Source of the DNA: a virus
Lineage: Duplodnaviria; Heunggongvirae; Uroviricota; Caudoviricetes
DNA: 64,000 nucleotides
Direction: 5' to 3' (one strand)
IMG/VR virus record: IMGVR_UViG_3300042009_000020
Span: 37,780-101,779 of that record
Part shown: piece after piece, positions 5,511 to 39,511 of the stretch
Numbering within the stretch: position 1 is the first letter of the stretch
How the letters are laid out: every line of letters begins with the position of its first letter
Program-made: the position numbers and the translations under genes
Notes under the pieces: generated by a model
Seen by the model: the letters and a program-made list of their open reading frames with translations, nothing else
Database searches by the model: none
What the model was told of the DNA's origin: nothing

Positions 5511-8500
5511 ATGCTTGATTATGAAATTCACGGTGGTAAAGGTGGTGGAGATAAACCACATACCCCTGTTGAAACACCTAATAACCTCCTTTCGGTTGCT
5601 TATGCAAAGGTGTTGATTGCTGTAGCTGAAGGTGAACTTGCTGGTGTTCCAACTAATCAAGACATCTTCCTTGACGGCACTCCACTTGCAAACCCAGATG
5701 GTTCACTTAACTTCGGTGGTGTTAAATGGGAATGGCGTTCGGGTACTCAGGATCAAACCTATATCCAAGGTCTACCAGAAGTATCAACAGAATACAACGT
5801 TGGTGTTGAGCTGAAGTCTACAACCCCTTGGGTTCGTAACATTACAAAGACTGAGCTTGATGGTGTACGTGTAACATTCCAATGGCCTGCTCTCTTGGAA
5901 CAAAAGTCGAATGGTGACACCGTTGGTGTTTCTATGGACTACAAGATCCAATTGTCGAAAGATGGTGGTGCCTTCACTGACTACAAAACATACACCATCA
6001 GTGGTAAAACCAACACAACATATGAACGTACACACCGTATTGATCTACCAAAGGCAACAACCGGTTGGATCATCCGTGCTGTTAAACTTACAGCAGATAC
6101 TACTTCTGGTACAATCCAAGACACAATGACTGTAAAGAGTGTCGCTGAAGTAGTTGACGTAAAACAACGCTATCCAAACACAGCCCTTCTGTATGTTGAA
6201 TTCGACAGTCGTATGTTTGGTGGTGGTTCAATCCCTAAAGTGTCTGTACGAACTAAAGGTCGTGTTATCCGTGTACCTGACAACTATGACCCAGTGGCAC
6301 GTACTTACAGTGGTGTTTGGAGTGGTGCCTTTAAGTGGGCTTGGAGTGATAACCCTGCGTGGGTCTACCACGATATCATTACTCAAGATCGTTTCGGTCT
6401 GGGTAATAAAGTCAGTCTGAACATGGTTGATAAGTGGGCACTCTATGAAATTTCACAACATTGTGATGTCATGGTTGATAACGGTTACAACGTTGGTGTC
6501 CTACAACCACGTCACACATGTAACATCTATATCCAAGAGAAGCGAGATGCTTGGCAAGTGTTGCGTGACATCGCTAGTATATTCAACGGTATGACCTATT
6601 GGAACGGTAATCAGTTTACAGCAATTGCTGACAAACAAGAACCATTCAACAACGCTCCTGTGTTCTCTCGTTCTAATGTAATTAATGGTCGTTTCGATTA
6701 TGCCGCTGCTGATGATAAGAGTATCTACACAAGTGCTCTGGTTAGTTATGATGAACCTGAAAACCATTACAACACAGCAGTGGAATCCACGTTTGAAACA
6801 GAACAGATTCTTCGCTGGGGTGGTGATCGTCAGATTGAAATCAGTGCCATTGGTTGTACATCTCGTGGTGAAGCACAACGTCGTGGTAAGTATGCATTAA
6901 TCACTAACATGTATAACCGTACCGTATCTTTCCGTACAGGTCTTCAAGGTCTGAATGACGAAGTGATGCCGGGTAAGTTGATCCATGTTGTCGACCCACT
7001 TATTGGTGGTCGTCCTTTCACTGGTCGTATTAAAGCTGCTGTTGGTACTGTACTCACACTGGATCGTACTGTTGATGCTGTTGCTGGCGATATCATGTAT
7101 ATCACCAAGTCGGATGGTGTTTCTGAAGGTCGTACAATCTCTGCTGTAGCTGGTAATATCGTTACCCTGCAAGTTGCGTACACAGAGTTACCAAAGCCAA
7201 ACGCTGTATGGTATCTCGAAGCTGCTGACCTCAAGTCGCAGTTGTTCCGTGTAACCAAGATCACTTCGCCAGAAGAGAGTGTGTATGAGATTGAAGGTGT
7301 TGAATACAACGACAGTAAGTATGCAGCAGTTGACACAGGTGCTAGACTTGAACCAAGACCAATCAGCGTAGTTCCACCAAACATTCAACAGCCACCAACC
7401 AATGTTAACATCATTTCTCAGACCTACGTTGAACAAATGATGTCTGTTAACACAATGGTTATCTCTTGGAATCAAACCCAGAATGCTGTTGGTTATGAAG
7501 TACAGTGGAAAGTTGAAAATGGTGACTGGGTAAACGCTGGTACTACTGGTGCTTTGTCTGTTACCGTGAAAGGTATTTACACCGGTCAATATGTTGCTCG
7601 TGTACGTGCTATCAACGCATTCGATATCAAGTCTATTTGGGTTTCAAGTGCACTGACTACACTTAACGGTAAGGTTGGTTTACCACCTGCTTTGACTAGT
7701 CTGTCAGTTGAACCACTTGTTTTTGGTATGAAACTTAACTGGACTTTCCCAGTTGGTGCAGAAGATACTGCTCGTACAGAAATCATGTACAGTCCAACTC
7801 AATTCTTTGCAAGTGCAACTAAGCTGGGTGACTTTGCTTATCCGCAAACGTCGCACTCAATCAATGGGTTGAAGGCTGGTCAGACTTTCTACTTCTGGGG
7901 TAGGTTGGTAGATAGAACCGGTAATATTGGTCCTTACTTCCCACTGACTACACAGAATGGTGTGATGGGTCTGTCGAGTACGGATGTTGCAGAGTATGAA
8001 GAATACTTCATAGACATGATCAACGAGTCTGCCCTTGGTCAACAACTTGGTGCGAAGATCGATAAGATTGAAATCATTGAAGCTGATCTTGATTTGGTTG
8101 AGATTGATCTTGATTTGGTTAAGACAGATGTTGATCAGATTAAGACTGATGTTGTGCAACTCGAAGTTGAATTTGATACAGCGATTGACAAGGTTAACAC
8201 TAACGTCAACTGGATCGAATCACAAATTGCAGGTGTAGAGCTTCAGTTGAAGAATGACCTTGTTATCACTCAAGGGGAACTTCAGACCAACCTTGATGAA
8301 CTTCAGGTTGACTTGGAAGCAGTAGACCAGATACTTGCTGATGCACTCGTTACCACTAAGAAAGATGTTGATGATATCAAAGAAGATGTTGTTGGTTTAA
8401 ACACTACTATTGATACTCTTCAGGATCAGGTTGATGGTATTACTGATGCATTGGAATACAACCCGAACAGAACATATGCTGCTGGTGAAGCCACACGTGT

Positions 8501-11500
8501 AGGAAACAATCTTTACCAAGCCACACAAAGTGTACCACTCGACACATCTCCACCAAATGCTACATACTGGAAAAATGTGGGTGAGGTCATCACTGCATAT
8601 GATGCGTTGGCTTCTCAGGTATCCACTAACACCACTAACATCACACAACAGGGTAATACACTCACTACCCAAGCTGGTCAGTTAACAGCTTTGACAACCC
8701 GAGTAAATACTGCTGAAGGTAACATCACTGGTAACAGTACAGCGATCACCAACCTTCAAACAACAGTGACCACACAAGGGAACAGTATTACCTCTCAAGG
8801 GAGTTTGATTACCGGTCTTCGGTCTGATGTAACTAGTCTGCAAACCGGACAATCTGGTAATGCTTCAGCGATCACTTCGTTAACCACACGAGTTACAACC
8901 GCCGAAGGAACGATTACTTCACAAGGTCAGTCAATTACTTCACTCAACGCCACTGTTGGGACTTTACAAACTGACTTAAATGGTGTAGAATCTACCGTAC
9001 TAGGACAGGGAACGGCCATTAATGGATTGACAACTACGGTCACCCAGCAAGGCAACACCCTTACTTCCCACGGTACAAGTATCACAGCACTTGAGAACAG
9101 TGTTTCGGATATCCAAACAGATGTATCTGGATTGACAACCACTGTTACCGGTCAAGGTACTTCCATCACCAATTTGCAAAACACTGTAACTCAGCAAGGT
9201 AACACAATCACAGCTCAGGCTCAGGACATTACAACCCTGAAATCTGATGTGTTGATTGATAAGACTGATATCAGCGGGCTCAAGACTACAACGACAGCAC
9301 AAGGTACTGCGATTACAAACTTGCAGACGACTGTGACCTCCCAAGGGAACAGCATCACATCAAACAGCAACAGTATCACCAACCTGACCAGCGATCTTCA
9401 CTTCAATGAATTGGATGCTCTCTACGAAGGTAATGAAACTGATGCTCAAATTGCTGATGCATTGGTCATCTCAAAAGCTACAGCTTCCGCAACAGAATCT
9501 CTGACAACGACAGTAACTTCTCATGAAGGTATTATCACAGCACAAGGTCAATCAATTACAGACTTGAAGGCTGCTCTTGAAGATTCGGATGGTAATATTG
9601 TTGGTCAAGCTAGTGCAATCGAGAGTCTTAAAACCAGTGTCACTCAACAAGGTAATACAATCAACTCACAAGGTGCTAGCATTACCAGTCTGGATAACAG
9701 CTTGGCAACCACTAACACCAATGTGGATGCTGCCCAACAAGCAGCAACTGATGCCAATACATTAGCTGGTGGAAAGGGTAAAGTATTCTTCCAAGCTTCG
9801 GCTCCTGCTGTTGGTGAGCAATTAAGTCAGAACCTTTGGATTGATACTACCGGGAACGCAAACACGCCTAAACGCTGGAATGGCTCGGCATGGGTAGCTG
9901 TAACTGACAAGGTAGCGACTGACGCTGCAACAGCAGCTGCTAACGCACTTACTCAAGTAGCTACAAAGGCTGATGCTTCAGCAGTGACGGCATTGACAAC
10001 CCGAGTAACTAACGCAGAAGGAACGATTACTTCACAAGGCACAAGCATCACCAGCTTGAACAACAGCCTGACAGTCACTAACACTAACGTGACAGCAGCT
10101 CAGAACGCAGCTCAGGCTGCTAGTGATCTTGCTGGTATCAAAGGTGAAGTGATCTACGGAAGCACAGCACCAACAACTGCACAACGTCTGCCTCAAAACC
10201 TTTGGATTGATACCACAAGTGGAGCAAACACTCCGAAGAGATGGTTGACGAACGCTTGGGTAGTTGTAACTGATAAAGTGGCTACAGACGCAGCAGCCGC
10301 TGCTGCAAGTGCTTTGACACAAGTTGCAACCAAAGCTGAAGCTAGTGCAGTAACATCGTTAACAACTCGCGTGACAAGTGCAGAGGGAACGATTACTTCC
10401 CAAGGTACAAGCATTACCAACCTGAACAACAGTTTGACGACTACCAATACCAACGTTAGTGCTGCACAAACAGCAGCTCAAGCTGCCAGTGATCTTGCTG
10501 GTACTAAAGGTAAGGTTCTGGTACAAACTACAACACCTGTTACCGCTGATCAACTTCCACAGAACTTGTGGATTGACATCACCAGCAGCAACAACACTCC
10601 TAAGAGATGGAACGGAAGTGCGTGGGTTGTGGTAACTGACAAGGTTGCTACTGATGCAGCAGCAGCCGCTGCTAATGCTTTGAGTGTTGCCAATACAAAG
10701 GCTGATGCATCTGCACTTAATGCCTTGACTACACGGGTTACCTCTGTTGAAGGTGTCACCACTTCACAAGGTTCTAGTATCACCACGTTGACAAACAACC
10801 TCAGTACCACTAACACCAACGTTACAGCCGCTCAGGCAGCAGCAGACGCTGCTAACACTCTTGCTGGTGGAAAGGGTAAGGTGTTCTATGGAAGTACAGC
10901 CCCTGCTACAGCAGAGCGTTTGAGTCAGAACCTCTGGATTGATACAACTGGTGGTTCTAACACACCTAAAAGATGGGATGGTTCAGCATGGACTGCTGTA
11001 ACTGATAAAGTGGCTACAGATGCCGCCATTGCTGCTGCTAACGCTTTAAGTGTTGCTAACACCAAGGCTGATGCCTCTGCTGTGACAGCTCTGACAAGTC
11101 GTGTAACAACGGCTGAAGGTAGTATCAGTTCACAGGGTACAAGCATTACAACGCTGAACAACAGTCTGACAACCACTAACAACAATGTAACCGCTGCTCA
11201 GGCTGCTGCTCAGGCCGCATCTGACCAAGCCGGTGCTAAAGGTGAAGTGATCTATGGTAGTACTGCTCCAGCAGTTGAGAAACGTCTTCCACAGAACTTG
11301 TGGATCGACACCACTGGTAATGCAAACACTCCTAAACGTTGGTTGACAAACGCATGGGTTGTGGTAACCGATAAGGTAGCTACTGATGCTGCAACAGCAG
11401 CAGCTAACGCACTTGCTCAGGTTGCTCTCAAAGCAGATAGTACAGCACTCACAGCTTTGACAAACACTGTTACCCAACAAGGTACTGACATCTCAGCGAA

Positions 11501-14500
11501 CGCTGGTAACATCACCATACTCAATACGGAGGTTCATTTCCAAGAGTTGGATGAATTGTACGCTGGTAATGAAACAGACGCCCAGATTGCAGACGCATTG
11601 ATGATTGCAAAAGGTACTGCTTCTGCTAACGAGTCATTGACTTCGGAAGTTACACAGCAGGGTGATTTGATTAAGGCTCAGGCCGAAAGCATTACTGACC
11701 TTGCATCGTCGTTGTCCTCAGTTGATGGTGATGTTTCTGCTCAAGGTGTTGCGATTGAAAATCTGAAAACTGTCACAACAGCTCAAGGCAATACAATCAA
11801 CTCTCAGAGTACAAGTCTCACGTCGTTGACCAACTCGTTGACCGTTACTAACACCAATGTCACAGCTGCGCAAACCGCTGCTGATGCTGCAAACACGTTA
11901 GCCGGTGGTAAAGGTAAGGTTATCGTCCAGAACGCAGCACCTGATGTTGCAGACAGGTTGGCACAGAACCTCTGGATCGACACCACTAGTGGAGCGAACA
12001 CTCCTAAAAGATGGTTGACTAGTGCATGGGTTGCAGTGACAGACAAAGTAGCTACCGATGCAGCAGCCGCTGCGGCAAGTGCACTTAGTCAAGTTGCAAC
12101 TAAGGCTGAAGCCAGTGCATTGACTTCATTGACCACTCGTGTGACAAGTGCTGAAGGAACAATAACAACTCAAGGTCAATCAATTACAACCTTGAACAAC
12201 TCTCTAACTACAACTAACACTAATGTGACAGCCGCTCAGGCTGCTGCGGATGCAGCGAATACATTAGCTGGTGGAAAGGGTAAAGTTATTGTTCAAACCG
12301 CTGCTCCAGCAGTTGGTGATCGACTTGCTCAGAACTTGTGGATTGACATTACAGGTAATGCTAATACCCCGAAACGTTGGGATGGAAGTGCTTGGACTGC
12401 TGTTACCGATAAGGTAGCTACTGATGCAGCAGCAGCCGCTGCTAACGCATTGAGTGTTGCTAACACTAAAGCAGACGCTTCAGCTGTAACGGCTCTGACA
12501 AGTCGTGTAACTACTGTAGAAGGCACTGTAACAACTCAGGGTCAAAGTATTACAACTCTGAATAACAGTCTGACTACTACCAATACCAATGTCACTACTG
12601 CTCAGGCAGCAGCTGATGCCGCTAACACCCTTGCGGGTGGTAAAGGTAAGGTGATGGTTCAAAGTGCTGCACCGGCTGTCGGAGATAGACTTGCTCAAAA
12701 CCTTTGGATTGATACAACAGGTAACGCCAATACTCCAAAGAGATGGGACGGTAGCAACTGGACTGCTGTGACTGACAAAGTGGCAACAGATGCAGCAGCC
12801 GCTGCTGCTAACGCCTTGAGTGTTGCTAATACTAAAGCTGATTCGTCAGCGGTATCAAGTTTGACAACACGAGTTACAACTGCTGAAGGTTTGATCACAA
12901 GTCAAGGTTCAAGTATTACTTCGCTGAATAACAGTCTGACTACTACTAACACTAACGTGACAACAGCTCAAAACGCTGCACAAGCTGCTAGTGATTTGGC
13001 TGGTAGTAAAGGCAAAGTGTTCTATCAAACTGCTGAACCTGCTGTTGGTGAAAGACTGTCGCAAAACCTTTGGATAGACATCACTGGTGCTGCAAATACA
13101 CCTAAGCGGTGGAACGGCAGTGCATGGGCAGCTGTAACTGATAAAGTGGCTACTGATGCAGCTACAGCTGCTGCAAGTGCGTTGACACAAGTAGCAACTA
13201 AAGCGGATGCTTCGGCATTGACAGCCTTGACTAACACTGTGACCTCCCAAGGTACTAGTATTACAACCAACGCTAGCAATATCACCCTGCTCAATACTGA
13301 CGTTCACTTTCAAGAGTTGGATGAGTTGTATGTCGGTAATGAAACTGATGCTCAAATTGCTGATGCGTTGATGATCGCTAATGGTGCTGCTTCTGCCAAT
13401 GAGTCGTTGACTGCTGAAGTTACACAACAAGGGGATCTGCTCACGGCTCAGGCTGTAATGATCACAGACCTTTCGAGTGAACTTTCTAATGTTGACGGTG
13501 ATGTGGTTGCCCAAGGGACGGCTATTGAAAACCTGAAAACTGTAACAACAGCACAAGGTAATACAATCAATTCCCACGGTGTATCGATCACATCTCTCAC
13601 TAACCGTGTGACAAGCGCTGAAGGTAACATCACGGGTCAAGCTACTGCTCTATCTGCTCTGGATACAAGAGTAACATCAACCGAAGGTACAGTGACTTCC
13701 CAAGGCACTAGTATTACAAGTTTGACAAGCTCCCTCGCCACAACCAACACTAACGTCACAACAGCCCAGAACGCAGCCAACGCTGCGAATACATTGGCTG
13801 GTGGTAAGGGTAAGGTTCTGGTACAAACCACAACGCCAGTGACAGCTGATCAACTCGTACAGAACCTTTGGATAGACATCACTGGTAGTGCGAACACGCC
13901 AAAACGTTGGAATGGTTCAGCTTGGGTTGCCGTGACAGATAAGGTAGCTACTGATGCAGCAGCCGCCGCTGCTAACGCTCTCTCAGTAGCAAACACCAAA
14001 GCTGATGCTGGTGCTGTAACCACTTTGACAACTCGTGTAACCAACGCTGAAAACAGTATCACTGCCTCGGCAACGAAGCTTGATGGTGTCTACGCTCAAG
14101 TTAACCCTACACTTGCTGGTGACGATGTTGGTCTTGCTGGTTCTGATAGTTATATGGTTGGTGTCTGGTCTGAAACCTCTGCTCGTATTGAGGATGGTGT
14201 TGTTTTGGGTTCACGTGTTGATACTGTTCAAGTTTCTAGTGATCAGGCGTTGACACTGGCTGAAGCTAACACTGCTGCTGTTCAACAAGTGTCACAAGCA
14301 CAGGTTGATGCAGACGGTAGAGCAAGCGCAATGTGGTCTGTCAAGTTGCAAGTTAACCAGTTCGGTCAGTATGTTACAGCTGGTATTGGTCTTGGTATTG
14401 AGAACGGTCCTGCTGGTCTGCAAAGTACATTCTTGGTGAACGCTGATACATTCGCAATCACTAACGGTGTTGATGCAAACCTAAGTGCACCATTTGTAGT

Positions 14501-14753
14501 GAATGGTGGTCAAGTATTCATCAAAGACGCATTCATTGCCAACGGTAGTATTACAATGTTGAAGATTGGAGACACTCTGCAATCTGATGACTTTGTTGCC
14601 GGTATCCAAGGATGGAGGTTGACTAAAGCTGGTACATTTGAAATCAACGGTCATGTACCCGGACAAGGTACAATGGTTATGACTAACCGCTCTTTGAGAG
14701 TATATGACGTAAACAACGTCAAGCGTGTGCAACTTGGGGATCTATCGGAATGA
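5511..14753 (+). CDS. J: host specificity / central tail fibre protein J, massively repeat-expanded (3080 aa)
   Basis: N-terminus (GGKGGG..HTP..NLLSV) and first ~900 aa align with lambda gpJ incl. FN3 domain; then ~1800 aa of Thr/Ala/Ser-rich tandem repeats; distinct C-terminal domain. Confidence 0.9.
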   Translation: MLDYEIHGGKGGGDKPHTPVETPNNLLSVAYAKVLIAVAEGELAGVPTNQDIFLDGTPLANPDGSLNFGGVKWEWRSGTQDQTYIQGLPEVSTEYNVGVELKSTTPWVRNITKTELDGVRVTFQWPALLEQKSNGDTVGVSMDYKIQLSKDGGAFTDYKTYTISGKTNTTYERTHRIDLPKATTGWIIRAVKLTADTTSGTIQDTMTVKSVAEVVDVKQRYPNTALLYVEFDSRMFGGGSIPKVSVRTKGRVIRVPDNYDPVARTYSGVWSGAFKWAWSDNPAWVYHDIITQDRFGLGNKVSLNMVDKWALYEISQHCDVMVDNGYNVGVLQPRHTCNIYIQEKRDAWQVLRDIASIFNGMTYWNGNQFTAIADKQEPFNNAPVFSRSNVINGRFDYAAADDKSIYTSALVSYDEPENHYNTAVESTFETEQILRWGGDRQIEISAIGCTSRGEAQRRGKYALITNMYNRTVSFRTGLQGLNDEVMPGKLIHVVDPLIGGRPFTGRIKAAVGTVLTLDRTVDAVAGDIMYITKSDGVSEGRTISAVAGNIVTLQVAYTELPKPNAVWYLEAADLKSQLFRVTKITSPEESVYEIEGVEYNDSKYAAVDTGARLEPRPISVVPPNIQQPPTNVNIISQTYVEQMMSVNTMVISWNQTQNAVGYEVQWKVENGDWVNAGTTGALSVTVKGIYTGQYVARVRAINAFDIKSIWVSSALTTLNGKVGLPPALTSLSVEPLVFGMKLNWTFPVGAEDTARTEIMYSPTQFFASATKLGDFAYPQTSHSINGLKAGQTFYFWGRLVDRTGNIGPYFPLTTQNGVMGLSSTDVAEYEEYFIDMINESALGQQLGAKIDKIEIIEADLDLVEIDLDLVKTDVDQIKTDVVQLEVEFDTAIDKVNTNVNWIESQIAGVELQLKNDLVITQGELQTNLDELQVDLEAVDQILADALVTTKKDVDDIKEDVVGLNTTIDTLQDQVDGITDALEYNPNRTYAAGEATRVGNNLYQATQSVPLDTSPPNATYWKNVGEVITAYDALASQVSTNTTNITQQGNTLTTQAGQLTALTTRVNTAEGNITGNSTAITNLQTTVTTQGNSITSQGSLITGLRSDVTSLQTGQSGNASAITSLTTRVTTAEGTITSQGQSITSLNATVGTLQTDLNGVESTVLGQGTAINGLTTTVTQQGNTLTSHGTSITALENSVSDIQTDVSGLTTTVTGQGTSITNLQNTVTQQGNTITAQAQDITTLKSDVLIDKTDISGLKTTTTAQGTAITNLQTTVTSQGNSITSNSNSITNLTSDLHFNELDALYEGNETDAQIADALVISKATASATESLTTTVTSHEGIITAQGQSITDLKAALEDSDGNIVGQASAIESLKTSVTQQGNTINSQGASITSLDNSLATTNTNVDAAQQAATDANTLAGGKGKVFFQASAPAVGEQLSQNLWIDTTGNANTPKRWNGSAWVAVTDKVATDAATAAANALTQVATKADASAVTALTTRVTNAEGTITSQGTSITSLNNSLTVTNTNVTAAQNAAQAASDLAGIKGEVIYGSTAPTTAQRLPQNLWIDTTSGANTPKRWLTNAWVVVTDKVATDAAAAAASALTQVATKAEASAVTSLTTRVTSAEGTITSQGTSITNLNNSLTTTNTNVSAAQTAAQAASDLAGTKGKVLVQTTTPVTADQLPQNLWIDITSSNNTPKRWNGSAWVVVTDKVATDAAAAAANALSVANTKADASALNALTTRVTSVEGVTTSQGSSITTLTNNLSTTNTNVTAAQAAADAANTLAGGKGKVFYGSTAPATAERLSQNLWIDTTGGSNTPKRWDGSAWTAVTDKVATDAAIAAANALSVANTKADASAVTALTSRVTTAEGSISSQGTSITTLNNSLTTTNNNVTAAQAAAQAASDQAGAKGEVIYGSTAPAVEKRLPQNLWIDTTGNANTPKRWLTNAWVVVTDKVATDAATAAANALAQVALKADSTALTALTNTVTQQGTDISANAGNITILNTEVHFQELDELYAGNETDAQIADALMIAKGTASANESLTSEVTQQGDLIKAQAESITDLASSLSSVDGDVSAQGVAIENLKTVTTAQGNTINSQSTSLTSLTNSLTVTNTNVTAAQTAADAANTLAGGKGKVIVQNAAPDVADRLAQNLWIDTTSGANTPKRWLTSAWVAVTDKVATDAAAAAASALSQVATKAEASALTSLTTRVTSAEGTITTQGQSITTLNNSLTTTNTNVTAAQAAADAANTLAGGKGKVIVQTAAPAVGDRLAQNLWIDITGNANTPKRWDGSAWTAVTDKVATDAAAAAANALSVANTKADASAVTALTSRVTTVEGTVTTQGQSITTLNNSLTTTNTNVTTAQAAADAANTLAGGKGKVMVQSAAPAVGDRLAQNLWIDTTGNANTPKRWDGSNWTAVTDKVATDAAAAAANALSVANTKADSSAVSSLTTRVTTAEGLITSQGSSITSLNNSLTTTNTNVTTAQNAAQAASDLAGSKGKVFYQTAEPAVGERLSQNLWIDITGAANTPKRWNGSAWAAVTDKVATDAATAAASALTQVATKADASALTALTNTVTSQGTSITTNASNITLLNTDVHFQELDELYVGNETDAQIADALMIANGAASANESLTAEVTQQGDLLTAQAVMITDLSSELSNVDGDVVAQGTAIENLKTVTTAQGNTINSHGVSITSLTNRVTSAEGNITGQATALSALDTRVTSTEGTVTSQGTSITSLTSSLATTNTNVTTAQNAANAANTLAGGKGKVLVQTTTPVTADQLVQNLWIDITGSANTPKRWNGSAWVAVTDKVATDAAAAAANALSVANTKADAGAVTTLTTRVTNAENSITASATKLDGVYAQVNPTLAGDDVGLAGSDSYMVGVWSETSARIEDGVVLGSRVDTVQVSSDQALTLAEANTAAVQQVSQAQVDADGRASAMWSVKLQVNQFGQYVTAGIGLGIENGPAGLQSTFLVNADTFAITNGVDANLSAPFVVNGGQVFIKDAFIANGSITMLKIGDTLQSDDFVAGIQGWRLTKAGTFEINGHVPGQGTMVMTNRSLRVYDVNNVKRVQLGDLSE
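8630..14060. repeat. hierarchical in-frame tandem repeats inside J
   Basis: ~10 copies of a 363-369 bp unit (NLWIDTTGNANTPKRW.GSAWV.VTDKVATDAA..) at 9833,10196,10559,10928,11291,11958,12327,12696,13062,13863, grouped in three super-repeats, each preceded by a ~300-bp variant segment (HF.ELD.LY.GNETDAQIADAL); shorter QG.SIT.L heptad-like repeats from ~8640. Confidence 0.9.
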
Positions 14754-22387: not shown

Positions 22388-22966
22388 ATGAAGCTACCAA
22401 TCACTAACAGTTTGAAAGCTAAGGTGTTTGCTGCTCTTCTTGCTGCCGGTGTTGCTGGTCCAAGTGCCTATGTGGCTTCTCAACTAACTGTTCCATCTGA
22501 GGGTGTAATGACACATCTTCATTTGGACCCAGTTGGGTTACAGACGACATGCATTGGACACTTGGTTAAGAAAGGTGAAACTCCAAAGCAGAATTACACG
22601 GAAGACGAATGTATTGCTCAGTTTGTTAAAGACTGGATCATACATGAAAAGATTGTTGAAAGTGCTGTGCGTGTTCCATTTCGTTCTGAATGGATGAAAG
22701 GAGCTGTCACAGACTTCACTTTTAACAAGGGTGGTGGGAACTTACAATCCAGCACAATGCTCGCCAAGTTGAATCGTCAAGACTACGATGGTGCATGTAT
22801 TGAGTTAACCAAGTGGGTATTTGGGACGATCAATGGTAAGAAAGTTAAACTGAAAGGTTTAGAGATTCGAGCCAGTGAGCAATACAAATATTGCATGGGT
22901 GCAGATGGTACTATGGGTGGTACAGTTCCTGCCTATTATAAACCAATTATGAAAGTGTGGGAGTAA
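22388..22966 (+). CDS. SAR endolysin (GH24 T4/lambda-R-type lysozyme)
   Basis: N-terminal weakly hydrophobic Gly/Ala-rich TMD (VFAALLAAGVAGPSAYVA) then E..D..T catalytic triad context SEGVMTHLHLDPVGLQTTCIGH. Confidence 0.85.
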   Translation: MKLPITNSLKAKVFAALLAAGVAGPSAYVASQLTVPSEGVMTHLHLDPVGLQTTCIGHLVKKGETPKQNYTEDECIAQFVKDWIIHEKIVESAVRVPFRSEWMKGAVTDFTFNKGGGNLQSSTMLAKLNRQDYDGACIELTKWVFGTINGKKVKLKGLEIRASEQYKYCMGADGTMGGTVPAYYKPIMKVWE

Positions 22967-31495: not shown

Positions 31496-31524
31496 TTGAC
31501 CACACTGCTTCACAAGCGTATAAT
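31496..31524 (+). promoter_or_regulatory. consensus promoter TTGACC-N17-TATAAT
   Basis: perfect -10, 17-nt spacer, AT-rich upstream. Confidence 0.7.
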
Positions 31525-31558
31525 ACGCAACATCAAAACGACACACTAGGAGAAACAA

Positions 31559-32455
31559 TTGAAATTTAGCAATCTGATCAAAGCTTCTGCACTGGCACTG
31601 GCTGCAACCCTTATGGTTGGTTGTGGTGAACGAGTTGAAGTTCCACCGGGTTTCGTCGGTAAGATCATGACGAAGGATGGTTATCAGGAAGGTTTGATTC
31701 CAACTTCCAAGATTCGACTTCCATTCTGTAATGCTTACTGTGATCGTCTGGTAGTTCTGGACACCACCGACAAGAGCTACACTGAGCCGATGGATATTTT
31801 CATTCCAGCGGATAAGCTGATCGTCAAAGTGGATTTGCGTGCAACATTGTCAGTTGATCCAACTAAAGCAGAAGCTATGTTTAACAAGCTTCCGCAAGTT
31901 GCAGAGAGTGATCAGTTTAGCAAGATTGCTGCTGAATCGATCTATAACACTTACGGTAAGCAAGTATTGCAGGCAGAGGTTCGTTCTTATCTGACTCGAT
32001 ACACCATCTCGGAAATTGCATCCAATGGCGAGAAGATTAACGCTGACATTCAAGTACTGTTGTCAAAAGTAATGGGTGAGCGTACACCGTTTACTGTTCG
32101 ATATGCCGGTTTGACTAATATCAAATACCCAGCAATCATTACCGAAGCACAAGAGAACAGTGCAAAACGTCGTGAGATGATCGCTCAGGAAGAAGCACAA
32201 CTTGAAGTATCTAAAGTTTCTCTTTCCCGTGAATTGCAAGAAGCGAAGATGCAGCGGGCAATTGATAAAGAGAAAGCTGAAACTGAAGCTCAAGCACAAA
32301 TGGTGTTGGCAGCTGCTGTAGATCCACGATCCCTGCGTATCAAAGAGCTTGAGATTCAGAAGATCATTGCTGAGAAGTGGGATGGTAGCTTGCCACAAAC
32401 AATCATGGGCGGTGATGGTAATATTCCGATGATCATGGACATGCGTAATAAGTAA
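31559..32455 (+). CDS. SPFH/band-7 (HflK/C-like) lipoprotein, TTG start
   Basis: lipobox LMVGC; SPFH-pattern segments (VEVPPGFVGKIMTKDG, IVKVDLRATLSVDP, VRYAGLTNIKYP) followed by Ala/Glu/Gln coiled coil; AGGAG SD 6 nt before TTG. Confidence 0.65.
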   Translation: MKFSNLIKASALALAATLMVGCGERVEVPPGFVGKIMTKDGYQEGLIPTSKIRLPFCNAYCDRLVVLDTTDKSYTEPMDIFIPADKLIVKVDLRATLSVDPTKAEAMFNKLPQVAESDQFSKIAAESIYNTYGKQVLQAEVRSYLTRYTISEIASNGEKINADIQVLLSKVMGERTPFTVRYAGLTNIKYPAIITEAQENSAKRREMIAQEEAQLEVSKVSLSRELQEAKMQRAIDKEKAETEAQAQMVLAAAVDPRSLRIKELEIQKIIAEKWDGSLPQTIMGGDGNIPMIMDMRNK

Positions 32456-32509
32456 TACTGAATATGAGCGGCTGTAAATATGCTGTCGCTCATTCATTAA
32501 GGAGTTGTA

Positions 32510-32824
32510 ATGATTCTGCTGCTGAACATGTTAATGACAATTGTTGTACTTGGTCATGCTTATCTCGCTTACAAGCTGAAGAAGATTTGGCCAATTGGTT
32601 TTGCTCTAGTTATGTTGCTTGTCTATCCAATGATCCAACCAAGCTACATGCCGAAAGGTACAGTACGACCAATGGTGACACAACCATTCGAGAAACTTGA
32701 TATTCCAATCGTTGATCGTGGTCTGAAACCAAAGTCTGGTGCTGAGTATGATACAGAGCGTAACAAGGCACTTGCAGAAATAAACAATAGCATTAACGAA
32801 CAAATCAAACTAAATAAGGAGTAA
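32510..32824 (+). CDS. small inner-membrane protein (2 TMDs)
   Basis: 104 aa, co-operonic with SPFH gene. Confidence 0.5.
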   Translation: MILLLNMLMTIVVLGHAYLAYKLKKIWPIGFALVMLLVYPMIQPSYMPKGTVRPMVTQPFEKLDIPIVDRGLKPKSGAEYDTERNKALAEINNSINEQIKLNKE

Positions 32825-32828
32825 CAAA

Positions 32829-32957
32829 ATGGGTAAAATCTTCTACGAACAAGCACATCCACAAGGCACCACCCAAACCGCTGGTCATAAAGCATTCAAG
32901 GTGTCTGCACCAAAGAGTCGCAAACGTGGTCGTGGTAACGTTCAAGTAAGCGCATAA
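32829..32957 (+). CDS. 42-aa basic peptide
   Basis: ATG after AAGGAG SD, ends just before terminator; below ORF-track cutoff. Confidence 0.3.
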   Translation: MGKIFYEQAHPQGTTQTAGHKAFKVSAPKSRKRGRGNVQVSA

Positions 32958-32960
32958 TAT

Positions 32961-32988
32961 TAGCCCCTCCTAGTGAGGGGCTTTTTCA
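32961..32988 (+). terminator. intrinsic terminator
   Basis: AGCCCCTC..CTAG..GAGGGGCT stem followed by TTTTTC. Confidence 0.8.
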
Positions 32989-33015
32989 TGCCTAGAAGAA
33001 AGTGAAAAATAGGTG

Positions 33016-33044
33016 TTGACAGAACAGACTGTCAACGTTAGAAT
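33016..33044 (+). promoter_or_regulatory. promoter TTGACA-N17-TAGAAT with overlapping palindrome
   Basis: TTGACAGaacagaCTGTCAA perfect 7-bp inverted repeat spans the -35 and spacer (possible operator). Confidence 0.65.
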
Positions 33045-33074
33045 CATAGCTCAATCAACGAGAGGGAATTTGTA

Positions 33075-33371
33075 ATGAAAAAGATTATTGTAGGTATGAC
33101 TTTTGTGCTAGTCTCCATGAGTACATTGGTACAAGCTGATGAACTGACGTATTGTGAAGCTCAGCGTGAACTGGCTAAACAAACCATGAGTTTCCGTCAG
33201 TCTGGAGGCTCCCGTGCTGAGTTTGACGCTGTTGTATACTCTGAGGAAGGTCAAGCCATTGCCGACATGGCGTGGGCTCGTGGAGTGATCCCACAGAGCG
33301 TTAGGAAGACTGCCGTGAACGGTTTTGCTGACCATGTAGAGCGTCAATGCCTACAATCCAGTGAAAAATAA
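33075..33371 (+). CDS. secreted/periplasmic protein
   Basis: 98 aa with cleavable signal peptide (MKKIIVGMTFVLVSMSTLVQA). Confidence 0.55.
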   Translation: MKKIIVGMTFVLVSMSTLVQADELTYCEAQRELAKQTMSFRQSGGSRAEFDAVVYSEEGQAIADMAWARGVIPQSVRKTAVNGFADHVERQCLQSSEK

Positions 33372-36306: not shown

Positions 36307-38028
36307 ATGGAAATTGGTCTGCTAGGTGACGGTAAGACAGAATATTATAAAAACGATATTTGCTACGACTTGGAAACTTACCCTGACACTTTCACATTTG
36401 CCGCTGTCTTTGCTAGCGGTAAAGGAATGCGTGTTTATGAAATCAGTGACCGAAAGAATGATACTGAGGAAATGCTTGAGTTCATGCGTAATATTGCGAC
36501 AGGTGGATATCGGATGGTTGGTTTTAACAACTTAGGTTTCGATTACCCTGTTTTGCACTACATCCTTGAAAAGAGTAAGGCAGCACGCAAAGAAGGTAAA
36601 ACTTTGCAAATCACAGCATCTGAAATCTATAGTAAGGTTTGTAAGATGTTTGAACAGATGAAGTTCAACAAATTCGGAACCGCTGTTCGTTCTGATGAAG
36701 TAATGTTGAAGCAAGTTGACCTGTTCAAGATAAAACATTTCGATAATCACGCAAAGTCTACCTCTTTAAAAATGCTTGAATTCAACATGCGTTCTAAGAA
36801 CATTGAAGACTTGCCGTTTCCTGTTGGTATGCGTTTGAATGATGAACAGAGAGATGTTCTGATTGAATACAACAAACACGATGTTATGGAAACATTGAAA
36901 TTCTATTACAGGATTTTTGATGAAGTCAAAATGCGTCATGAACTGTCTGGTCAGTTCGGCTTTGACTGTACCAACTTCAATGATACGAAAATCGGCAAAG
37001 AGTTGTTCGTTAATCGTTTGGAATCTGCTAAGCCCGGTTGTTGCTATAAGATTGAGAAGAAAGGACCAAGGATGGTTCGGCAAATGCAACAAACAAAACG
37101 CAGTAGTATTAATCTTGGTGAGTGTGTTCTTCCGTACGTTCAATTCAATCGACCTGAGTTTAAAGCGATTCATCAATGGTTCCTTAATAAGACAATTGTT
37201 GAGACAAAAGGGTCACTCACAGATATTGAAGAACATGAGCTTGGTGATGTTGCTAAGTATGCAAAACTTCGTGTTAAAATGAAAAAGATGAATTGCCCTA
37301 TTGATGGGGCAAAGAATAAGCGCTATGTGCCAACCGAAGAACAAATCCTTGAGATGATGAAAGAACATCCCTTGGGTTGGGTTGAGGCTGTTGAACTCAA
37401 GAGTCCAAAGGGTGCCGCCAGCTATTGGTTCTGTTGGAATATTGCAGAAACCCTTAATGTTGTGATAAATGGATTCCAGTATGATTATGGTACTGGTGGA
37501 ATCCACGGTGCTAAACAAGGTGTCCATTCTAGCAATGACGAATACCAGATTTACAGCTATGATATCGCGTCAATGTACCCTAACGTCTCAATTCAGAACA
37601 AACTGTTCCCTGAGCATCTGGACATTCTGTTCTGTTCTGTTTATGAAGGGTTGTATCGTGAGCGTAAGAGTTATGATAAAAAAGATTCAAGAAACAAGGC
37701 GCTGAAATTGGCTCTAAACGGAACATATGGTGCATCTAATGACCAGTACAGTCCTATGTATGATCCTAAATTCACAATGAGTATCACAGTGAATGGTCAG
37801 TTGTTGTTGTCAATGTTGATTGATGATATGATTGAACAACTTGGTGCTGATGTGCTCATGTGCAACACTGATGGCTTTGAATTCATTGCTAAAAAATCTG
37901 ATGCTGACATGGTTGCACAAATCGTTAAATCATGGGAGAATGTGACCAAGCTTGAGATGGAAGGTGAGCTTTACAAGAAAATGCTCATCCGAGATGTAAA
38001 CAATTATCTTGCAATTAAACAGAAATAA
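36307..38028 (+). CDS. DNA polymerase, family B (3'-5' exo + pol motifs A/B/C), truncated after KxY-like motif
   Basis: ExoI YDLET; motif A YDIASMYPN, motif B KLALNGTYGA, motif C CNTDGF; ends 50 aa after motif C, immediately before a homing endonuclease gene. Confidence 0.65.
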   Translation: MEIGLLGDGKTEYYKNDICYDLETYPDTFTFAAVFASGKGMRVYEISDRKNDTEEMLEFMRNIATGGYRMVGFNNLGFDYPVLHYILEKSKAARKEGKTLQITASEIYSKVCKMFEQMKFNKFGTAVRSDEVMLKQVDLFKIKHFDNHAKSTSLKMLEFNMRSKNIEDLPFPVGMRLNDEQRDVLIEYNKHDVMETLKFYYRIFDEVKMRHELSGQFGFDCTNFNDTKIGKELFVNRLESAKPGCCYKIEKKGPRMVRQMQQTKRSSINLGECVLPYVQFNRPEFKAIHQWFLNKTIVETKGSLTDIEEHELGDVAKYAKLRVKMKKMNCPIDGAKNKRYVPTEEQILEMMKEHPLGWVEAVELKSPKGAASYWFCWNIAETLNVVINGFQYDYGTGGIHGAKQGVHSSNDEYQIYSYDIASMYPNVSIQNKLFPEHLDILFCSVYEGLYRERKSYDKKDSRNKALKLALNGTYGASNDQYSPMYDPKFTMSITVNGQLLLSMLIDDMIEQLGADVLMCNTDGFEFIAKKSDADMVAQIVKSWENVTKLEMEGELYKKMLIRDVNNYLAIKQK

Positions 38029-38042
38029 ACAATGAGGTTGTC

Positions 38043-38966
38043 ATGACGTTGACTAGAATGATTTACAGTGACAACCTCTTGTCACAAGACAAGATTGGTA
38101 TTTACAAGATCGAAAACCTTGTGAACGGTAAGGTCTATGTCGGTAAAACTGTTAATTTCCGAAGTCGCTACAACACCTACAACTCAGCATTCAGAACTAA
38201 TCGGACGACTCATATCAACCGATATCTAATGAGTTCTTTGTCAAAGTATGGCATTAGCAATTTCAAATTCAGCAAGCTTGAATCTTGCTCACTTTCTGAG
38301 ACTGGGGATCGAGAACTTTTCTGGATGGATCAGTTGGACTCGTGTTCTCGCAACGCTGGTTACAATCTGAGACGCGACAGTTCTACCGGCATGGAAACTC
38401 ATGAGGACACACGTGCTCACCTTTCTAGCAAAATTATCCAGCAATATGCAGATGGAAAGCGTGATAAAAGAAAGATCAGTGAATTCTTTAAAGGGTTTTG
38501 GTCGAATCCTGTTGTCAAAGACGAAATGGCGAAGCGTGTTGCTGAAGTTAACCGTTCTTATTTCATTCAGAGAGACAAGACCACATCTGACATTGTTTGT
38601 GTTTGGGATGGTATAAACCAGATCAAAGCAGCAAATCCACAATGGAAATGGCAGAATATTTATGCTGCGTGCAATGGAAGCAAACCATCATACCTTGGCT
38701 TCAAATGGGAACGCTCATCTGAAATCCCAGAAGGTTGTGAGCATCTTGTCCACAGAGGTGAGAATGTTCTGTTCAAGGATGTGGATAAAACACATTTACC
38801 TCGAACCAACTCACTGGTGTACACAGTGCATCATGGTGAATTTAAGGGTGAATACACTGGTGTTGAACTTTCTAAAATTTATGCGGCCATGTACAATGCA
38901 TTCTGCAAAGCAAAGTGTAATGAAATTTACTGGAAACGTGGTAAAACCAAAATAACTAGGGGATAA
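38043..38966 (+). CDS. GIY-YIG homing endonuclease
   Basis: GIYKIENLVNGKVYVGKT..R..Y motif; inserted between two polymerase-associated ORFs. Confidence 0.8.
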   Translation: MTLTRMIYSDNLLSQDKIGIYKIENLVNGKVYVGKTVNFRSRYNTYNSAFRTNRTTHINRYLMSSLSKYGISNFKFSKLESCSLSETGDRELFWMDQLDSCSRNAGYNLRRDSSTGMETHEDTRAHLSSKIIQQYADGKRDKRKISEFFKGFWSNPVVKDEMAKRVAEVNRSYFIQRDKTTSDIVCVWDGINQIKAANPQWKWQNIYAACNGSKPSYLGFKWERSSEIPEGCEHLVHRGENVLFKDVDKTHLPRTNSLVYTVHHGEFKGEYTGVELSKIYAAMYNAFCKAKCNEIYWKRGKTKITRG

Positions 38967-38974
38967 AAGGCATC

Positions 38975-39511
38975 ATGAAACATCAAGAGATTCTGGATGC
39001 TTTGCGTGAAACGGTTAGCAGTGGTTCGATCAAGACAAAAGGAGCATATGAGTGTCTACCATATGATGAATTGGGTTGGCACAAGAACCATTCGTCTATG
39101 GTCATTCAGTTGGCGGTTGCTGCTCATTTGCTTGAGCTTTGTGACTATAAGACATTTATTATGAATCATAAAGACCCTTTTGATTTCTGTCTTAGAACAA
39201 AGGTTCCAAGGTCTAGTCGTCTTGTCATGGTTTTTAAAGACAGTTTTGGTGTTGATGAAGAGGTGGTGGTTCAGAATATCTGCCGGTATGTTCCCGTGAA
39301 GGATGGTGGTAAGTTGGTGAAAATAATGCCACCGCTACCCGGTGGTACAGATGAGAGACGACTGAGCATCGACAGCAAGTATGACGTGAGAGAATGCAAT
39401 GACATGGATGACTTTGATTGGAATATTGATTATGATTACTATTTTGACAAAGCCGAAAAGCTTGTAAATGCTATCATCGGTGATGACTCGGACGAAGGTG
39501 AAGAAGATTGA
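38975..39511 (+). CDS. hypothetical protein; candidate C-terminal (thumb) fragment of the split DNA polymerase
   Basis: 178 aa, acidic tail; position right after HEG insertion; no motif match I can verify. Confidence 0.35.
   Translation: MKHQEILDALRETVSSGSIKTKGAYECLPYDELGWHKNHSSMVIQLAVAAHLLELCDYKTFIMNHKDPFDFCLRTKVPRSSRLVMVFKDSFGVDEEVVVQNICRYVPVKDGGKLVKIMPPLPGGTDERRLSIDSKYDVRECNDMDDFDWNIDYDYYFDKAEKLVNAIIGDDSDEGEED

Follow-up and report, generated by a model that had tools for sequence, protein, structure and literature searches.

What does a tailed phage gain from a gene of the SPFH (Band 7) family, and does the product act alone? The question is raised by a locus in 64,000 nucleotides of a Caudoviricetes genome (IMG/VR record IMGVR_UViG_3300042009_000020, positions 37,780 to 101,779), here called the window. 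The locus encodes a 298-residue SPFH lipoprotein, a 104-residue protein with two hydrophobic helices (hereafter the partner) and a 42-residue basic protein. SPFH proteins organise membranes in every domain of life, and most bacterial ones have no clear function. The phage Band 7 proteins, annotated since a comparison of T4-like phages in 2006 (PMC1524935), have been an annotation curiosity for twenty years, and a paper of 2026 states that the reason for the domain in a phage genome 'remains unclear' (PMC13239085). In this study, the SPFH gene was found to be tightly paired with the partner gene, and the pairing followed the type of membrane anchor. The explanation that we favour, to which a probability of roughly 0.45 is assigned for architecture and physiological role combined, is that the two genes form a membrane-scaffold module with which the phage would maintain the inner membrane of its host during infection.

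The 298-residue protein matched Pfam Band_7 (PF01145) with 46.2 bits against a cut-off of 23.6 (E=6.8e-12), residues 27-215 being aligned on profile positions 2-172 of 176. Moreover, a full-length match to phrog_200 'lipoprotein' was obtained (E=9.7e-50, residues 3-297 on profile positions 81-361 of 379). The protein consists of a signal peptide with the lipobox LMVGC, the SPFH domain, two helices (192-253 and 256-273) and a tail with the pattern W274-x-G276-x-x-P279-x-T281. Its N-terminus, MKFSNLIKASALALAATLMVGC, passes the PROSITE PS51257-type lipoprotein pattern, and the protein is probably a lipoprotein and a putative substrate of signal peptidase II. Cys22 was invariant in 36 close and 7 distant homologues, from 95% down to 33% identity, and the lipobox was present in all checked loci except L052, L057 and L064, the subgroup anchored by a transmembrane (TM) helix aside. 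The SPFH domain starts only about 4 residues after Cys22, and the best-conserved segment, CGExVEVPPGxVGK, adjoins the membrane anchor. The sole further cysteines, C57 and C61, were invariant among close relatives and both replaced in KVP40. Their joint conservation and joint loss fit a disulfide, which would be periplasmic.

The AlphaFold2 model of the protein shows SPFH strands and helices, the long helix 192-253, the helix 256-273 and a C-terminal tail of low confidence. In the Foldseek search it matched chains of prohibitin, stomatin, HflK/C, QmcA and erlin with a probability of 1.00 and E=2e-11 to 1e-7, over alignments of about 260-330 columns with 14-17% identity. Flotillin and vault were also matched, and nearly all of the top 35 hits were full-length subunits of solved SPFH or vault cages. 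The SPFH alignment profile, searched against PDB sequences, gave only PH stomatin (E=0.009). Although the tail was modelled with low confidence, W274, G276, P279 and T281 are conserved in sequence, which is expected of a segment ordered only in the oligomer. By the conserved tail and by analogy with the solved cages, the protein probably assembles into a membrane-attached ring or cage. The preliminary description of this DNA, made from the letters before any search, had proposed an SPFH/band-7 lipoprotein with a coiled coil and had suggested a profile search as the check; the Band_7 score, the lipobox pattern, the modelled long helix and the fold matches all agree with it.

The same description had spoken of an 'SPFH/HflK-C pattern'. 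The SPFH part of this claim holds on the Pfam and fold results, but the part specific to HflK/HflC does not, for the HflK/HflC models were unmatched in the NCBIfam scan, where only a noise-level match to FlgB appeared. The protein is, as judged by its sequence, an SPFH member and no orthologue of HflK or HflC. The E. coli HflK/HflC-FtsH system is nevertheless similar in plan, being a periplasm-facing inner-membrane SPFH assembly with the order anchor, SPFH1/2, coiled coil and C-terminal cap that is predicted for the window protein, and its Foldseek match had E=5e-9 over about 290 columns. The window protein differs in being lipid-anchored instead of carrying an N-terminal TM helix, in being encoded by one SPFH gene instead of forming a heterodimer, in its identity of only 14-17% and in that no link to FtsH was found. 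As summarised in PMC13086221, the HflKC cage comprises 12 dimers around four FtsH hexamers. A phage cage of this kind could capture or displace host FtsH, or another inner-membrane protease or client, and so alter the turnover of membrane proteins. HflK/C is indeed the one well-studied periplasm-facing bacterial SPFH cage, and it encloses FtsH hexamers (PMC13086221; PDB 7VHQ, 7WI3 and 9CZ2 were among the Foldseek hits); the phage protein shares its domain order and its predicted orientation. However, prohibitin and stomatin score as well as HflK/C or better, the single SPFH protein comes with a two-TM partner and not as a heterodimer, and a gene related to FtsH was linked in none of the loci examined. 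Together with the low identity and the unmatched NCBIfam models, these points make such mimicry improbable. A rationale of the CII type, in which FtsH arbitrates between lysis and lysogeny, also seems unlikely, because the relatives found are annotated as lytic-type and no lysogeny genes were seen among the annotated open reading frames (ORFs) of the window, no search having been aimed at integrase or repressor.

The pairing with the partner was observed in phages of unrelated types. The partner gene lies directly 3' of the SPFH gene in the Pseudomonas phage vB_PpS_SYP and one gene further downstream in Boevelstad and vB_PseuGesM_254. It was also present in the loci of Aeromonas 4L372XY, Xanthomonas XacN1, Alteromonas PT11-V22 and KVP40, and in nearly all of 39 IMG/VR loci. 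When an iterated partner profile was run over the 5,343 ORFs of 107 collected loci, 79 hits were obtained in 79 loci, one in each, and every hit lay just downstream of the SPFH gene, with none elsewhere. The SPFH genes beside these hits were of the lipobox type and came from phages and from bacteria, Comamonas, Microbulbifer and the Candidate Phyla Radiation among them. The profile search made no use of position, so the homology and the linkage of the partner are strongly supported. The reverse test gave the same picture: two distant partner representatives, chosen blind to their context, each lie 8-9 nucleotides after a Band_7 gene. A word-indexed homologue search returned only 6 close relatives of the partner, and an exhaustive HMMER search of 1.84 billion protein representatives was used instead; it found 171 partner clusters, and the best 150 hits listed were all 61-139 residues long, most of them 95-125. 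In distant loci of the lipobox type, a neighbour of similar size with two TM helices was seen that sequence comparison did not detect. In KVP40, AhSzw-like phages and Bdellovibrionota this neighbour is on the downstream side of the SPFH gene; Nankokuvirus Epa16 and the jumbo phage Miami have it upstream. The small membrane protein that had been noticed behind the lipoprotein is thus a real and conserved partner, analogous in position to NfeD.

The partner was modelled by AlphaFold2 with high confidence (predicted local distance difference test, pLDDT, 91.7) as a TM hairpin (2-23 and 27-42) followed by an extended segment (43-76) and an amphipathic helix (77-103). The motif QPSYMPKG stands directly after the second TM helix, and IVDRGLKP follows later. 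Across the family, P44 is invariant, N6 in the first helix as well as Y46, P48, K49 and G50 are conserved to at least 90%, and [IV]xD[RN]xxKP recurs; the conserved QPSYxPKG thus adjoins the membrane anchor. The loop between the helices is short and basic (YKLKK here) and longer and more basic in relatives. Because of this basic loop and the positive-inside rule, the tail of the partner is predicted to lie in the periplasm, as is the SPFH domain.

Bacterial SPFH proteins pair with NfeD-like membrane proteins, as the preliminary description had pointed out. An NfeD identity of the partner was rejected. The partner had no match in Pfam (E<=1), PHROG, NCBIfam or PADLOC, its model contains no OB-fold or beta-barrel, and a fold search with the model against the PDB gave no match. 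Eight diverse partners searched against Pfam at E<=5 gave scattered single matches to unrelated membrane families, mostly DUFs, none of which was common to two partners, and the old annotation of the KVP40 partner as 'PF04186 (FxsA)' was not reproduced by the Pfam search. The likeness to the SPFH-NfeD operons (QmcA-YbbJ, PDB 8Z5G; PH1511-PH1510 of P. horikoshii; FloA/FloT-NfeD) lies in the tight pairing of an SPFH gene with a small multi-TM gene. QmcA-YbbJ, a cage of 26 heterodimers (summarised in PMC13086221) that incorporates its NfeD partner 1:1 (Tan et al. 2024, cited there), also differs in that QmcA faces the cytoplasm, whereas the window system is predicted to face the periplasm with an SPFH protein that has no TM segment of its own. 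The partner is therefore an unannotated family, and no published description of its gene was found in the literature searched.

A different anchor was found in the homologues of the T5-like phage DaisyDussoix, 44RR and RB43, where a signal-anchor TM helix replaces the lipobox. The C-terminal region is retained, residues 85-298 being homologous at 28% identity with the near-identical C-termini PQTVVG...MIMDMRNK and PQTIMG...MIMDMRNK. These TM-anchored proteins are, like the window protein, phage-encoded and predicted to face the periplasm, but no gene for a two-TM protein adjoined the SPFH gene in any of the three examined. Anchor type and partner presence are complementary: a partner accompanies the lipid-anchored forms and is missing beside the TM-anchored ones. 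This is most simply read as the partner providing the transmembrane component. No published description was found either of this complementarity or of a non-NfeD partner family. In 44RR (Aeromonas phage 44RR2.8t.2; L107, 2547-3378), the TM-anchored SPFH gene is followed by two genes, one for a 72-residue pseudopilin-like protein that carries a methylation motif at its N-terminus (MKGFTLIELMIVV…) and one for a 202-residue lipoprotein, a set of envelope-directed neighbours that differs from that of the window. The features of the window locus are collected in Table 1; every element of the preliminary description was found at the coordinates it gave.

Table 1. Coordinates of the SPFH locus and of the lysis cassette in the window
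Feature	Position	Strand	Details
Whole locus	31496-32988	+	Order: promoter, SPFH gene, 54-nucleotide spacer, partner gene, 42-residue protein gene, terminator
Near-consensus sigma-70-type promoter	31496-31524	+	TTGACC-17 nucleotides-TATAAT; 11/12 consensus matches; A-rich AAAATAA just upstream
Shine-Dalgarno sequence AGGAG	31548-31552	+	6-nucleotide spacer to the TTG at 31559; kept in the alignment of relatives
SPFH/Band 7 lipoprotein, 298 residues	31559-32455	+	TTG start; Cys22 codon 31622-31624
Stem-loop in the 54-nucleotide SPFH-partner spacer	32464-32493	+	No T-run; 60-nucleotide stretch -16.3 kcal/mol, z = -2.6 against shuffles
Partner, 104 residues	32510-32824	+	Two hydrophobic helices
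Basic protein, 42 residues	32829-32957	+	MGKIFYEQ...PKSRKRGRGNVQVSA; …PKSRKRGRG…; also called by independent gene callers
Intrinsic terminator	32962-32988	+	AGCCCCTC-CTAGT-GAGGGGCT then TTTTTC; 8-bp stem (32962-32982), 6 G-C pairs
Endolysin	22388-22966		phrog_7; hydrophobic N-terminus, possibly of the signal-anchor-release type
Membrane protein, 87 residues	22971-23234		phrog_21126
Protein with N-terminal TM helix, 128 residues	23203-23589		i-spanin-like
Lipoprotein, 109 residues	23486-23815		phrog_456 'Rz-like spanin'; overlaps the gene of the 128-residue protein

The SPFH family itself is widespread among phages. Homologues were found by tblastn in 678 of 50,697 GenBank phage records, the carriers being phages of Pseudomonas, Aeromonas, Variovorax, Xanthomonas (jumbo) and Alteromonas, KVP40-like Vibrio phages, Nankokuvirus and jumbo Klebsiella phages, together with T5-like Salmonella and Escherichia phages, RB43 and 44RR, the last three at 26-28% identity. 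They are annotated as 'lipoprotein', 'band 7 protein' or 'stomatin-like protein'. The window protein was 72-78% identical to its homologues in Boevelstad, vB_PseuGesM_254 and vB_PpS_SYP and 38% identical to that of KVP40, and orthologues at 60-95% identity were found in many metagenomic contigs of about 100 kb. The phrog_200 proteins (KVP40.0339, Sajous1 gp200 and the lipoprotein of Gibbsiella phage GIB1) are direct homologues that have the lipobox and the downstream partner in common with the window gene, from which they show no difference in kind. The SPFH gene is accordingly an unremarkable addition to a phage family that is widespread and annotated but uncharacterised.

Taking these results together, the following mechanism is proposed. 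The two genes would be transcribed probably by host RNA polymerase and probably early in infection, since the promoter is near-consensus. The SPFH protein would be exported, lipid-modified at Cys22 and tethered to the periplasmic face of the membrane, where it would oligomerise through the coiled-coil helices and the C-terminal tail into a ring or cage around a patch of membrane. The partner would span the inner membrane as a hairpin, its basic loop being cytoplasmic and its conserved tail of about 60 residues periplasmic. Built into the assembly through this tail, in direct contact with the SPFH protein, it would form the transmembrane palisade that the lipid-anchored protein lacks. Its role would parallel that of the N-terminal TM helix of HflK/C and of the T5-type homologues and that of NfeD in QmcA-YbbJ; with respect to the HflK/C helices and to NfeD, the arrangement is analogous and not homologous. 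With such a host-type envelope-maintenance module, the phage would preserve the order and the energised state of the inner membrane from the entry of its DNA to programmed lysis. The molecular architecture is considered probable, and the role in inner-membrane maintenance is put forward as tentative.

Several points weigh against this explanation. The model of the SPFH monomer is only moderately confident (pLDDT 74; predicted template modelling score 0.48). The iterated partner profile missed the neighbours in KVP40, Nankokuvirus, Miami and Bdellovibrionota, and beyond about 35% SPFH identity the putative homology of the partner is one of architecture only. About ten loci of the lipobox type showed no partner, several of them being truncated loci or fragmentary genes. 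The early timing is read from the promoter sequence, and membrane maintenance, for which the argument comes from the bacterial chromosomal homologues, is the weakest step. A literature search for experiments on any member, or for exclusion, defence or early expression linked to phage SPFH proteins, yielded annotation-level mentions only. The most direct difficulty concerns the location of the two proteins. In E. coli, the Lol rule sorts lipoproteins without Asp at position +2 to the outer membrane. The residue after the lipidated cysteine was Gly or Ala (Gly in the window protein) and never Asp in about 100 members listed, so the rule predicts the outer membrane for the SPFH protein and would place the two proteins in different membranes.

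If this prediction holds, the lipoprotein in the outer membrane could meet the periplasmic tail of the partner and form a complex across the envelope, either to assist lysis in the manner of a spanin or to serve as a brace against lysis that comes too early. The pair resembles a two-component spanin such as lambda Rz/Rz1 in that a lipoprotein and an inner-membrane protein whose periplasmic domain is helical are encoded side by side, and the tail of about 60 residues with its 27-residue helix would suit a bridge. However, an o-spanin is short and proline-rich and this lipoprotein is a 298-residue SPFH protein, i-spanins have one TM helix and the partner two, and the pair lies among replication-type genes, outside the lysis cassette. 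That cassette (Table 1) is separate, 9 kb away, and its genes include one for an Rz-like spanin; a spanin identity of the pair was therefore rejected. Further, the TM-anchored homologues could not form such a bridge, nor, as far as is generally known, could bacteria of the Candidate Phyla Radiation (CPR), and the best-conserved motifs of both proteins are membrane-proximal. A trans-envelope complex is regarded as quite improbable. For the cage proposed here, by contrast, the inner membrane is argued as the site, because the TM-anchored homologues must be there, CPR bacteria carry the pair and the conserved segments of both proteins adjoin their anchors. To our knowledge, CPR bacteria have no outer membrane.

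The preference for a maintenance role comes from the bacterial relatives. A scan of one genome per bacterial species gave 55 chromosomal loci with a lipobox SPFH gene, most of which had a two-TM gene directly downstream. The carriers were Comamonas, all sampled Microbulbifer, Methylotuvimicrobium, Endozoicomonas, Bdellovibrionota and several CPR lineages, and the Comamonas copies were 57-61% identical to the phage SPFH protein. The other neighbouring genes varied between the bacterial loci, and a conserved wider neighbourhood was rejected. In Comamonas testosteroni CP044131 (L054, 5935-7109), for instance, the pair stands between the gene of a GGDEF-type protein and unrelated genes, and a phage antirepressor-like ORF lies about 3.5 kb downstream. 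Because near-identical modules are stable chromosomal genes in bacteria, maintenance was preferred over a function against other phages. The latter would be superinfection exclusion or an envelope barrier, in which an abundant SPFH assembly in the periplasm would stop later phages from delivering their DNA or attacking the cell wall. It draws on the consensus-like promoter, from which early expression is probable, on the predicted action of an exported lipoprotein in the envelope and on the spread of the module through large, mostly apparently virulent phages of Gram-negative hosts. The known exclusion genes of virulent phages are early genes for envelope proteins, and T4 Imm and Sp and T5 Llp would be analogues in timing and location. 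Nevertheless, close homologues with the same partner are chromosomal residents of Comamonas, Microbulbifer and CPR bacteria with variable, non-defence neighbours, and none of the three proteins of the locus matched a defence model in the PADLOC-DB scan at E<=1. Moreover, exclusion proteins tend to be narrow in range and to evolve fast, and this family is conserved in hosts whose phage receptors are unrelated. Exclusion is thus possible but rather unlikely. All three functions suggested in the preliminary description, namely remodelling of membrane microdomains, modulation of FtsH and superinfection exclusion, are speculative.

The 42-residue protein had been described as a basic peptide in the same unit. 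It is encoded by a real gene: the ratio of non-synonymous to synonymous polymorphism (pN/pS) was about 0.1-0.4 against four relatives, which indicates purifying selection, and the ORF, its start and its stop are kept. Its membership in the module is another matter. The idea that it is a third subunit or a regulator of the SPFH-partner complex would fit its place within the same promoter-terminator span and directly after the partner gene in every member of the clade of about 100-kb phages that has it. However, it stands beside the module only in this clade and is absent from phage Boevelstad. Homologues that are 81-90% identical occur in Otagovirus-like Pseudomonas phages (Kremar, PPSC2, VCM, 16Q, M5.1, REC and others), and in Kremar (L110, 2501-2629), the one examined, the gene has unrelated neighbours and the annotation shows no SPFH or partner gene within 2.5 kb. 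By this distribution the protein is evolutionarily independent of the module, and its role as a module subunit is largely refuted. In addition, it has no signal peptide and no hydrophobic segment and is presumably cytoplasmic, whereas the conserved parts of the module are periplasmic. A three-gene unit is consequently very improbable. The protein matched phrog_23893 weakly and had no match in the NCBIfam scan; such strong conservation in different phage genera points to a conserved target in the host, and it is probably a small cytoplasmic effector.

The expression signals of the locus were compared with the rest of the window and with relatives. The preliminary description had called the lipoprotein strongly promoted. 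A near-consensus promoter with 11 of 12 matches is present, but it is not distinctive: sites equally near the consensus numbered 13 on the + strand and 1 on the - strand of the window, against 0.67 expected per strand in Markov-1 simulations. The number being far above expectation, these sites are real signals, and the promoter at 31496 is credible and not special, one of about 13 similar ones. Others on the + strand are found, for example, at 2896, 29676, 33016, 39521, 40348, 42714, 58626, 61522 and 63755. An A-rich stretch of the AAAATA type precedes many of the 13, and such stretches suggest a phage-specific extended promoter consensus for host RNA polymerase. The hexamers and the AAAATAA stretch are kept 5' of the orthologue in L008, L009, L030 and phage vB_PpS_SYP. 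In L011 and L012, a sequence like the 3' end of a transfer RNA (GGTTCGACTCCC…) replaces the promoter about 60-130 nucleotides 5' of the SPFH start, which shows that the expression signals of the module vary within the clade. The proposed TTG start was supported by relatives, some of which have ATG in its place in the alignment. In the stretch that separates the SPFH gene from the partner gene, where some relatives have an extra small gene, the stem-loop could set differing expression of the two genes or mark a site of messenger RNA processing or stability. The strong terminator also proved to be present, as a G+C-rich hairpin with a T-run; the 45-nucleotide stretch containing it (32956-33000) had a minimum free energy of -16.2 kcal/mol, and an equivalent hairpin and T-run follow the 42-residue protein gene in L010, L012 and L013.

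Behind the locus (33016-33371), a second near-consensus promoter, TTGACA-17-TAGAAT at 33016, drives a gene for a 98-residue protein. This protein has a cleavable-looking signal peptide (MKKIIVGMTFVLVSMSTLVQA) and matches phrog_2315, to which no function is assigned. Similar secreted proteins come after the module in vB_PpS_SYP and in L010 and L011. The 98-residue protein may be another envelope-directed protein, and it is probably expressed early.

That the locus belongs to a phage, as had been assumed, was confirmed by the tail, lysis and replication genes of the window. They include genes for a tape-measure protein, a 3,080-residue central tail fibre protein, further tail proteins, the endolysin, an RNA ligase, helicases, a primase/helicase and a DNA polymerase. 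A megablast search of the locus against GenBank phages gave no nucleotide-level match. At the protein level, the closest cultured relatives were the Pseudomonas phages vB_PpS_SYP and phiPMW of about 103-107 kb, and by this comparison the window phage appears to be an uncultured relative of both. It is a probably virulent phage related to Pseudomonas phages. Two observations on other genes of the window may be added. The DNA polymerase looks split, since ORF 36307-38028 corresponds to positions 49-509 of phrog_1252 and ORF 38975-39511 to positions 510-658; a homing-endonuclease ORF of the GIY-YIG type (38043-38966) lies between them, and the gene is either a split gene or one invaded by an intron or a free-standing endonuclease. 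The 3,080-residue tail protein (5511-14753) has an N-terminus like that of the central tail fibre J, many internal repeats (15 stretches matching phrog_2589) and a region matching the glycerophosphodiester-phosphodiesterase family.

These results bear on the biology of the SPFH family. Phage SPFH genes are not solitary and belong to a module with a previously unnamed partner family that is also found in bacterial chromosomes, and the module offers a structural hypothesis, a lipid-anchored periplasmic cage with a transmembrane partner. A broader view, which we hold to be doubtful, is that an undescribed 'split-anchor' SPFH class exists, in which a dedicated two-TM partner family completes a lipid-anchored extracytoplasmic cage and stands in for both the TM anchor and NfeD; it would be shared by bacteria, including CPR, and by many large, mostly apparently virulent phages, and would have an infection-specific job in the latter. 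Candidates for this job are the sealing of the genome-entry site in the inner membrane and the shielding of the membrane from abortive-infection effectors or superinfecting phage, with the cell kept energised until lysis. The lipobox-plus-partner form is carried by tractable phages, namely KVP40, Nankokuvirus and the cultured Pseudomonas phages SYP, Boevelstad and 254, and the TM-anchored form by T5-like phages. If the module protects or partitions the inner membrane in infection, it would amount to a widespread phage strategy for managing the host envelope that has been overlooked.

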